From positions 137,950,001-138,014,000 of the forward strand of contig OX597814.1 in the NCBI GenBank assembly GCA_951406725.2: a stretch of DNA of 64,000 nt, read 5' to 3'. The stretch comes from Octopus vulgaris. Its lineage: Eukaryota. The first letter of the stretch is position 1. Each line of letters opens with the position of its first letter. Shown in pieces: positions 7,109 to 7,737 of this stretch. Both the position numbers and the translations under genes were made by a program. The notes under the pieces were generated by a model. That model was not told where the DNA came from. It did not search any database and was given only the letters and a program-made list of their open reading frames with translations.

Positions 7109-7737
7109 GTCATTTGACTGTGGCCTTGCTGGGGCACCACCTTTAGTCGAGCAAATCGACCCCAGGACTTATTGTTTGTAAGCCGAGTACTTATTCTATC
7201 GGTCTCTTTTGCGGGGACGTAAACACACCAGCATCGGTTGTCAAGCGATGTTGGGGGGACAAACACAGACACACAAACATACACACACACACAAACACAC
7301 ACACACACACACACACACACACACATATATACATATATATATATATATATATATATATATATATATATATATATATATATGTATATATATAAATATATAT
7401 ATGTAGGTCCCGGGTTGAGTCGGGGTTAACCACAGTAAATAAGGAGCTTCTACAGGACTAGAACTGCTTCATTCAAAAGAAATCATCAGGAGCTTCCTGA
7501 TGATTTCTTTTGAATGAAACAGTTCTAGTCCTGTAGAAGCTCCTTCTATAAAATATATATATATACATATATACGACGGGCTTCTTTCAGTTTCCGTCTA
7601 CCAAATCCACTCACAAGGCTTTGGTCGGCCCGAGGCTATAGTAGAAGACACTTGCCCAAGGTGCCACGCAATGGGACTGAACCCGGAACCATGTGGTTCG
7701 TAAGCAAGCCACTTACCACACAGCCACTCCTACGCCT
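7109..7737 (-). mobile_element. tRNA-derived SINE family A, interrupted by the hammerhead palindrome
   Basis: Minus-strand head AGGCGTAGGAGTGGCTGTGTGGTAAG...GGTTCAGTCCC with A/B-box-like motifs; internal (CA)/(TA) tract. Confidence 0.85.
7488..7544 (+). ncRNA. Type I hammerhead ribozyme, intact core
   Basis: Stem I AGGAGCTTC/GAAGCTCCT (9 bp); CTGATGA 7497-7503; stem II TTC-tttt-GAA; GAAA 7516-7519; stem III CAG/CTG; GUA triplet with predicted cleavage after 7535. Confidence 0.85.

Follow-up and report, generated by a model that had tools for sequence, protein, structure and literature searches.

The window, by which we mean the whole 64,000-nt stretch of Octopus vulgaris DNA analysed here, contains a tandem duplication, whose two units lie on the + strand at 5907-8667 (unit 1) and 8668-11496 (unit 2), as found by self-BLAST and global alignment. 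The duplication breakpoints consist of a 2-nt TA, no N occurs in the window, and the units are 2.0% diverged (50 substitutions in 2481 aligned positions). This divergence is uneven, with 12/1200 (1.0%) on the left vs 32/1098 (2.9%) on the right (p=0.001). Unit 1 is also without 221 bp and 16 bp that are present in unit 2. Just upstream of the duplication start, a GC-richer stretch (5780-5900) carries two GCGCATG(T/C)GC motifs, which we take to be NRF1-like, and may be a promoter.

The sequence found in unit 1 only amounts to 262 bp (7293-7554) and is made up of an insert and about 110 bp more microsatellite. The insert (7403-7555, 153 bp) has no ORF and lies inside the (TA)n tract of a SINE-like repeat copy (7108-7737), which it splits at the internal CA/TA tract; this repeat, which presumably resembles an octopus tRNA-derived SINE, has many copies in the window. 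To the left of the insert runs an expanded (CA)n and then (TA)n tract (7259-7402). The empty site in unit 2 (10276-10312) is a short CA/TA tract of ordinary SINE length and pattern, the right part of which, (TA)5CA(TA)3, is the same sequence that follows the insert on its right side in unit 1. As the insert is absent from six of the seven SINE tracts that a pattern search found in the window, it must have entered this SINE copy. An earlier note on this DNA had correctly seen an insert of about 150 bp in the (TA)n tract of the unit 1 SINE opposite a short tract in unit 2; of the span that it gave, 7403-7552, the start stands and the end moves to about 7555. The CA(TA)nCA(TA)n pattern of the right flank recurs at the start of the 7259-7402 tract, where a blurred target-site duplication may lie; no clear duplication is readable in the microsatellite, which slippage blurs.

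Architecture of the insert

Within the insert, 7441-7545 form a 105-bp palindrome with arms of 51 nt (7441-7491 and 7495-7545) and a 3-nt loop (7492-7494). The arms match at 50 positions and differ at one (C7467/A7519); with a larger loop counted they measure 49 nt, in agreement with the 49-bp arms and single mismatch described before. When 7403-7555 was shuffled by letter 300 times, no arm had more than 11 matches, compared to the 50 observed.

Comparison with contigs of the same repeat family (see below) resolves the insert into two 5'-truncated copies of one element end, joined by their 5' ends within the (TA)n tract; the earlier note had not recognised that the entire insert comes from one abundant, probable retroelement family. 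The left copy, whose sense strand is the minus strand, runs to the element 3' terminus. It consists of the 3' terminal end (7403-7444), which adjoins TA-rich sequence in family contigs, and of the hammerhead-bearing left arm (7441-7491), which is 5'-truncated inside stem I. When contig overhangs are compared, about 43 nt of family sequence are absent from this copy between two AAGG repeats. The right, inverted copy is on the + strand and ends internally (7542-7555): it matches the family for 10 nt beyond 7545 and stops at 7555, the last ATA being common to the target tract. The one-sided extension measures 38 nt in the window, or about 71 nt with the 43-nt gap counted. The head-to-head inversion junction (7491-7495) includes the 3-nt loop, has 0-1 nt of microhomology and sits at the 5' edge of natural stem I. 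Neither a second copy of the insert nor one of the missing ~43-nt segment was found within the 64-kb window.

The window contains further inverted repeats. A second long palindrome (26895-27017; 61-nt arms, one mismatch, 1-nt loop) adjoins a hammerhead-like core at 27058 on the minus strand, which is without clear stems, and this palindrome is possibly another fold-back retroelement stump. At 1798-3088 lies an inverted duplication of 1.3 kb, near-perfect (99% over 495 nt of the arm), which contains (ATAC)n/(TATG)n and is rich in (ATT)n at its centre, and at 28607-29290 a MITE-like pair of 236-nt inverted repeats, 98% alike and 212 nt apart, has a related copy near 18490-18690.

A hammerhead motif and its predicted fold

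The right half of the palindrome carries a type I hammerhead motif (7491-7541, + strand) that, judged from sequence, family contigs and folding, is like the family majority. Its core is complete, with C3-A9 at 7497-7503, G12-A15.1 at 7516-7519, U16.1 at 7534 and A17 at 7535. Stem III has 4 bp and a partly self-complementary loop of 8 nt. Stem II has 3 bp and, in place of the canonical 10.1-11.1 pair (usually G-C), is closed by a U10.1-U11.1 mismatch (U7504-U7515) that the earlier note did not mention and for which no variant at 5% or more is listed in four runs. PMC3088659 describes U10.1-U11.1 as a variant that occurs in nature and as the mispair that is tolerated best. The natural stem I of the family has 5-6 bp, because family contigs carry other sequence upstream of 7491/7492, and the extra pairs of a 9-bp stem I are supplied by the left arm, i.e. 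by the inversion junction. Hence, of the complete hammerhead with 9-bp stem I and a GUA site at 7535 that had been proposed, the core and the GUA remain, but only five to six of the stem I pairs belong to the family. The mirror half was rightly described as having GAAG and no proper stem I: in the left arm, A15.1 is replaced by G (7467), and the best stem I that this arm can form is shifted in register and has no pair adjoining the core. One may speculate that this A-to-G change of the sense strand is a copied A-to-I edit; a plain transition explains it equally well.

The motif places three stems around the core, with stem I open, and in isolation its hammerhead fold is within 0.3 kcal/mol of the MFE; cleavage is predicted after 7535. 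The hammerhead fold is predicted to take a share of about 0.055 in 7488-7544 and of 0.05 with the natural stem I, but for 7441-7545, as for the whole insert, the value falls to about 1e-43, so that the earlier expectation of a long hairpin competing with the ribozyme fold was, if anything, understated. The folding model predicts the ribozyme to be a passenger, which in any read-through transcript would be zipped into a 51-bp hairpin without cleavage; transcription of the + strand would make the inhibiting arm first. The segment of stem III and loop III is able to pair as a dimer (duplex of -12.8 kcal/mol). Rfam gave no match at the gathering score in the window, and the 52 weak matches in 7300-7700 are generic hairpins, none of them a hammerhead family. 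Elsewhere, at 60559-60607 (+), the window has a second, unrelated minimal type I hammerhead with a 4-bp stem I, a long stem II and a palindromic loop III, which is the shape described for the minimal hammerheads of Penelope-like elements (PLEs).

The repeat family in public sequencing runs

Sampled words of the insert were found in public runs in 24 rows, from 11 studies and under five organism labels, and the best row contained 7 of the 11 words. None of the 24 rows is listed as RNA, although X13 may be, and contigs say nothing on expression. Contigs of four runs from four studies (X1, X2, X4 and X13) were aligned to 7385-7580 at 85% likeness, which yielded 1218, 1233, 8553 and 66 contigs, respectively. 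The comparison skipped 7543-7580, including the right junction, as repeat, and lack of cover there is therefore uninformative. The contig pieces referred to individually are the 32 listed of 11,219, and the overhangs are likewise a part of the whole, 148 others being left out.

Cover was heavy on 7403-7444 and 7491-7545, and 40 to 300 times less on the left arm and centre (X1). The summed depth in X1, which is not a copy number, is about 2e6 over the + hammerhead, 1.3e6 over 7413-7419 and 6-8e3 over the palindrome centre. Judged from these contigs, the family is highly repeated and its usual form is non-palindromic and has GAAA; the palindrome is a minority form, because the X1 depth over its centre is far lower. 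According to the contig overhangs, 7403-7444 and the hammerhead belong to a single element end, and those behind 7444 and before 7436/7441 overlap one another, which is the evidence for the 3' end. The order in the family is thus the hammerhead, then about 40 nt, then the 38-nt piece that is the element 3' end and adjoins TA-rich sequence, into which family contigs pass from 7403 (X1 records 1-8, X2 17-19). By inference from these contigs, the hammerhead cut site lies about 91 nt from the element end.

Among the 32 pieces listed, nine (X4 25-32, X2 20) span the palindrome centre with at least 31 letters on each side and 4-14 differences, and therefore like junctions occur at other loci. Further joints are found at varied points inside the hammerhead. 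Outside 7467, the window copy has the majority letters of X1 and X2. Pattern scans gave no locus in viral contigs, metagenome contigs and prokaryote genomes.

Between 7492 and 7540, the sites variable at 5% or more in X1, X2 and X13 are 7501 (N7) and, in loop II, 7508 and 7510; X4 also varies at 7496 and upstream. All three sites fall among the 13 unconstrained of 49 positions (chance 0.016), a test on three sites that may represent a few subfamily events. The pattern lends modest support to the view that variation in the motif spares the core and stems.

Discussion

The locus is probably what remains of an insertion that was dead on arrival, a stump left by a highly repeated PLE family or by a non-autonomous derivative of it. 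We only infer the PLE membership, because no RT/GIY-YIG ORF is linked to the family; Pfam on 8 of the 48 long ORFs of the window gave RVT_1, PHD (below the cut-off), DDE_3 and an amino-acid permease, and no GIY-YIG. The stretches 51503-52765, 53807-54265, 59776-60399 and 5247-5666 hold remains of non-LTR elements in the form of broken RT fragments (RVT_1), a piece of a DDE_3 transposase, an exon of an amino-acid permease and a further fragment that, without a Pfam match, seems to us to resemble a Helitron helicase C-terminus.

As far as the available parts of the sources describe them, PLEs have an inverted 5'-truncated copy beside their 5' end, a one-sided 3' extension and a (TA)n bias (PMC8557442); truncated PLEs yield opposite-strand hammerhead pairs (PMC4209133), and head-to-head junction palindromes as well as microhomology deletions have been described (PMC3846280). 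Two of the traits of EN+ PLEs recur beyond our locus: the head-to-head inverted 5'-truncated copy is found at other loci with varied junctions, and the AT-rich/(TA)n target bias is seen both here and in the family contigs that run from 7403 into TA-rich sequence. Like the canonical EN+ PLE insertion units in these accounts, the locus combines a junction palindrome, unequal 3' ends, 5' truncation and a type I hammerhead in the putative terminal repeat with a (TA)n target (the bias of the Naiad, Hydra and Neptune type) and a microhomology-bounded internal deletion (PMC8557442, PMC3846280). It differs from them in its size of 153 bp without ORF, in an end asymmetry of about 71 nt rather than the published 30-40-nt tail, which speaks against our reading, and in that it is not assignable to a clade. 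Naiads are unlikely, because these elements, as described in the accessible texts, are without canonical hammerheads and left only remnants in cephalopods.

The ribozyme itself is similar to the minimal hammerheads of PLEs in being of type I with a short stem I (4-5 bp there, 5-6 here), in a partly palindromic loop III through which two copies can pair and in the occurrence of close opposite-strand pairs (PMC4209133). However, according to the same source the usual metazoan PLE type has a long stem II with G10.1-C11.1, almost no stem III and pairs 100-700 bp apart, whereas our locus has a 3-bp stem II closed by U-U, a real 4-bp stem III and abutting halves. This deviation, like the target-site duplication (an optional trait of PLEs) that is not clearly readable, also counts against a PLE stump. 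A close parallel is provided by the Poseidon element PAc of Anolis, for which it was reported that both strands are cut and extended, that AT-rich DNA is preferred and that hammerhead cleavage is unneeded for insertion; its reverse transcription starts internally 111-118 nt into the ORF and the cut is at +26, i.e. some 85-92 nt upstream of that start (PMC11167929, available part). Both elements share an AT-rich target and, by our model, priming on both strands, and the family hammerhead at about 90 nt from the element end corresponds to the PAc end about 90 nt past the cut site, in an AC-rich stem-loop. PAc is autonomous and was tested in vitro, whereas our locus is characterised here from its sequence.

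A PLE-type insertion could have built the locus as follows. A GIY-YIG/RT protein would cut both strands of the TA tract, and each 3'-OH would prime cDNA on the hammerhead-bearing terminal repeat, with one cDNA beginning at the terminal start site and the other internally, aided by ATA microhomology. Both cDNAs would halt near the 5' edge of stem I, after which their ends would be joined, while the 43-nt gap would be due to slippage or a later deletion between the 4-nt repeats. Alternatively, one cDNA might snap back, copy itself and switch template at the AAGG/CCTT repeat, which would fit as well.

The position of the junction allows a further, tentative suggestion, which we regard as possible but somewhat doubtful: junctions and 5' truncations may cluster at the 5' edge of stem I because the transcript 5' end lies there, the joint then being formed at the start site by run-off cDNAs of uncleaved RNA. 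Internal initiation of reverse transcription about 90 nt past the cut on uncleaved RNA would give run-off cDNAs of ~140 nt, and those from both strands of one cut would be joined at the start site. Further upstream, the family sequence in X2 and X13 has a TATAAA motif whose first letter lies 30 nt before 7492; X1 and X4 show no such motif. The similarity of many contigs to the family breaks off at 7491-7500, where they pass into mixed flanks; a pile-up at 7491 would arise in any case, because the window copy stops matching the family there.

The same contig ends bear on another explanation, namely that the family is a short hammerhead element in its own right, non-autonomous, retrozyme- or SINE-like and about 140-200 nt long, which a PLE mobilises in trans; the locus would then still be a head-to-head insertion accident. 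Contigs that leave the family at or inside the hammerhead into mixed flanks (in X4, 428 at 7494, 96 at 7497 and 83 at 7500, with an agreement of 0.40-0.44) would fit such an element, and its 4-bp stem III could work as a monomer. Metazoan non-LTR retrozymes are comparable in being short, non-coding and highly repeated, with a type I hammerhead and a probable PLE dependence, and the accessible texts propose retrozymes as derivatives of PLE pLTRs (PMC7229834; bioRxiv 10.64898/2026.07.22.740005). Nevertheless, retrozymes are defined there by head-to-tail tandems of 150-450 bp and by circular RNAs, and the locus is a single head-to-head pair without any head-to-tail tandem (other loci may differ). 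Moreover, the 3' end adjoins TA-rich sequence instead of a next monomer, the shared upstream sequence extends beyond stem I in X2 and X13, and 5'-truncated PLEs also give short stumps, which together make an independent element distinctly improbable. Whichever of the two applies, the family may carry a monomer-competent variant of the hammerhead, as suggested by its 4-bp stem III and U-U-closed stem II.

Explanations without a retroelement fare considerably worse. A short palindromic insert in TA could come from a palindromic MITE or a fold-back DNA transposon with the hammerhead as a chance or incidental motif, and the window does have other long inverted repeats. But the two ends of the insert are not inverted copies of each other, so that terminal inverted repeats with a fixed target-site duplication are not found, the family is mostly non-palindromic with junction positions that differ between copies, and variation spares the core and stems; we regard this explanation as already largely refuted. 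Hardly more credible is an assembly artefact, either a fold-back chimera or two haplotypes placed in tandem. No listed run contains more than 7 of the 11 sampled words, and the whole stretch is spanned by none of the 32 contig pieces listed (of 11,219), which would fit an artefact. On the other side, the arms differ by a substitution, the outer ends differ from each other and fit the family, the SINE resumes correctly on both sides, and the duplication has a clean TA junction with no N gap.

Independent of its identity, the PLE-like insert most likely arrived later than the tandem duplication. We favour this order with good confidence as the simplest path, since the tract in unit 2 has ordinary SINE length and pattern and one insertion suffices. 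The earlier note had taken the insertion to post-date the duplication as a consequence of the empty site; the order holds as the favoured one, but the TA flanks and the uneven divergence of the units keep it from being proof. A near-perfect palindrome between TA direct repeats is liable to be deleted, and therefore loss from unit 2 could have occurred. Likewise, the units may come from different alleles in view of their uneven divergence, and the arm mismatch and the 43-nt gap permit an age equal to that of the duplication. One mismatch in 51 has a 95% interval of 0.05-10%, too wide to order events, and a probability of 0.31-0.37 at 1-2.9% divergence. An older insert, deleted from unit 2 or carried by one of two alleles, is nonetheless unlikely in our view, as it needs a longer path to the ordinary tract in unit 2 and as the copy equals the majority letters of X1 and X2 outside 7467.

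If the O. vulgaris calibration in the accessible part of PMC13282606 applies, the duplication is roughly 1.4-4 million years old. The same study reports recently active Penelope families in O. vulgaris, with 329 recent insertions from 30 families, and a Penelope-like share of 6.83% of the genome (supplement); recent mobility of the present family is therefore expected. Hammerhead matches were already noted in a squid genome (PMC6962438, available part). The paper literature that we searched contains no account of this hammerhead family in cephalopods, and repeat databases (Repbase, Dfam) and most sequence supplements, which lay outside the search, may already contain it.

The single locus matters little, as it would be a by-product of retroelement insertion, with a ribozyme that its own mirror copy is predicted to silence. 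Its pair of filled and empty sites offers a convenient view of how PLEs target (TA)n, except that the target duplication is obscured by slippage. More is to be gained from the family than from the locus: if the junctions map to the transcription start, it would provide a genome-scale test of how PLEs build their inverted ends. Thousands of stumps would then be a natural record that separates two-primer from self-priming models of PLE inversion, a question left open in the PLE literature accessible to us, and would show that the template was uncleaved RNA.
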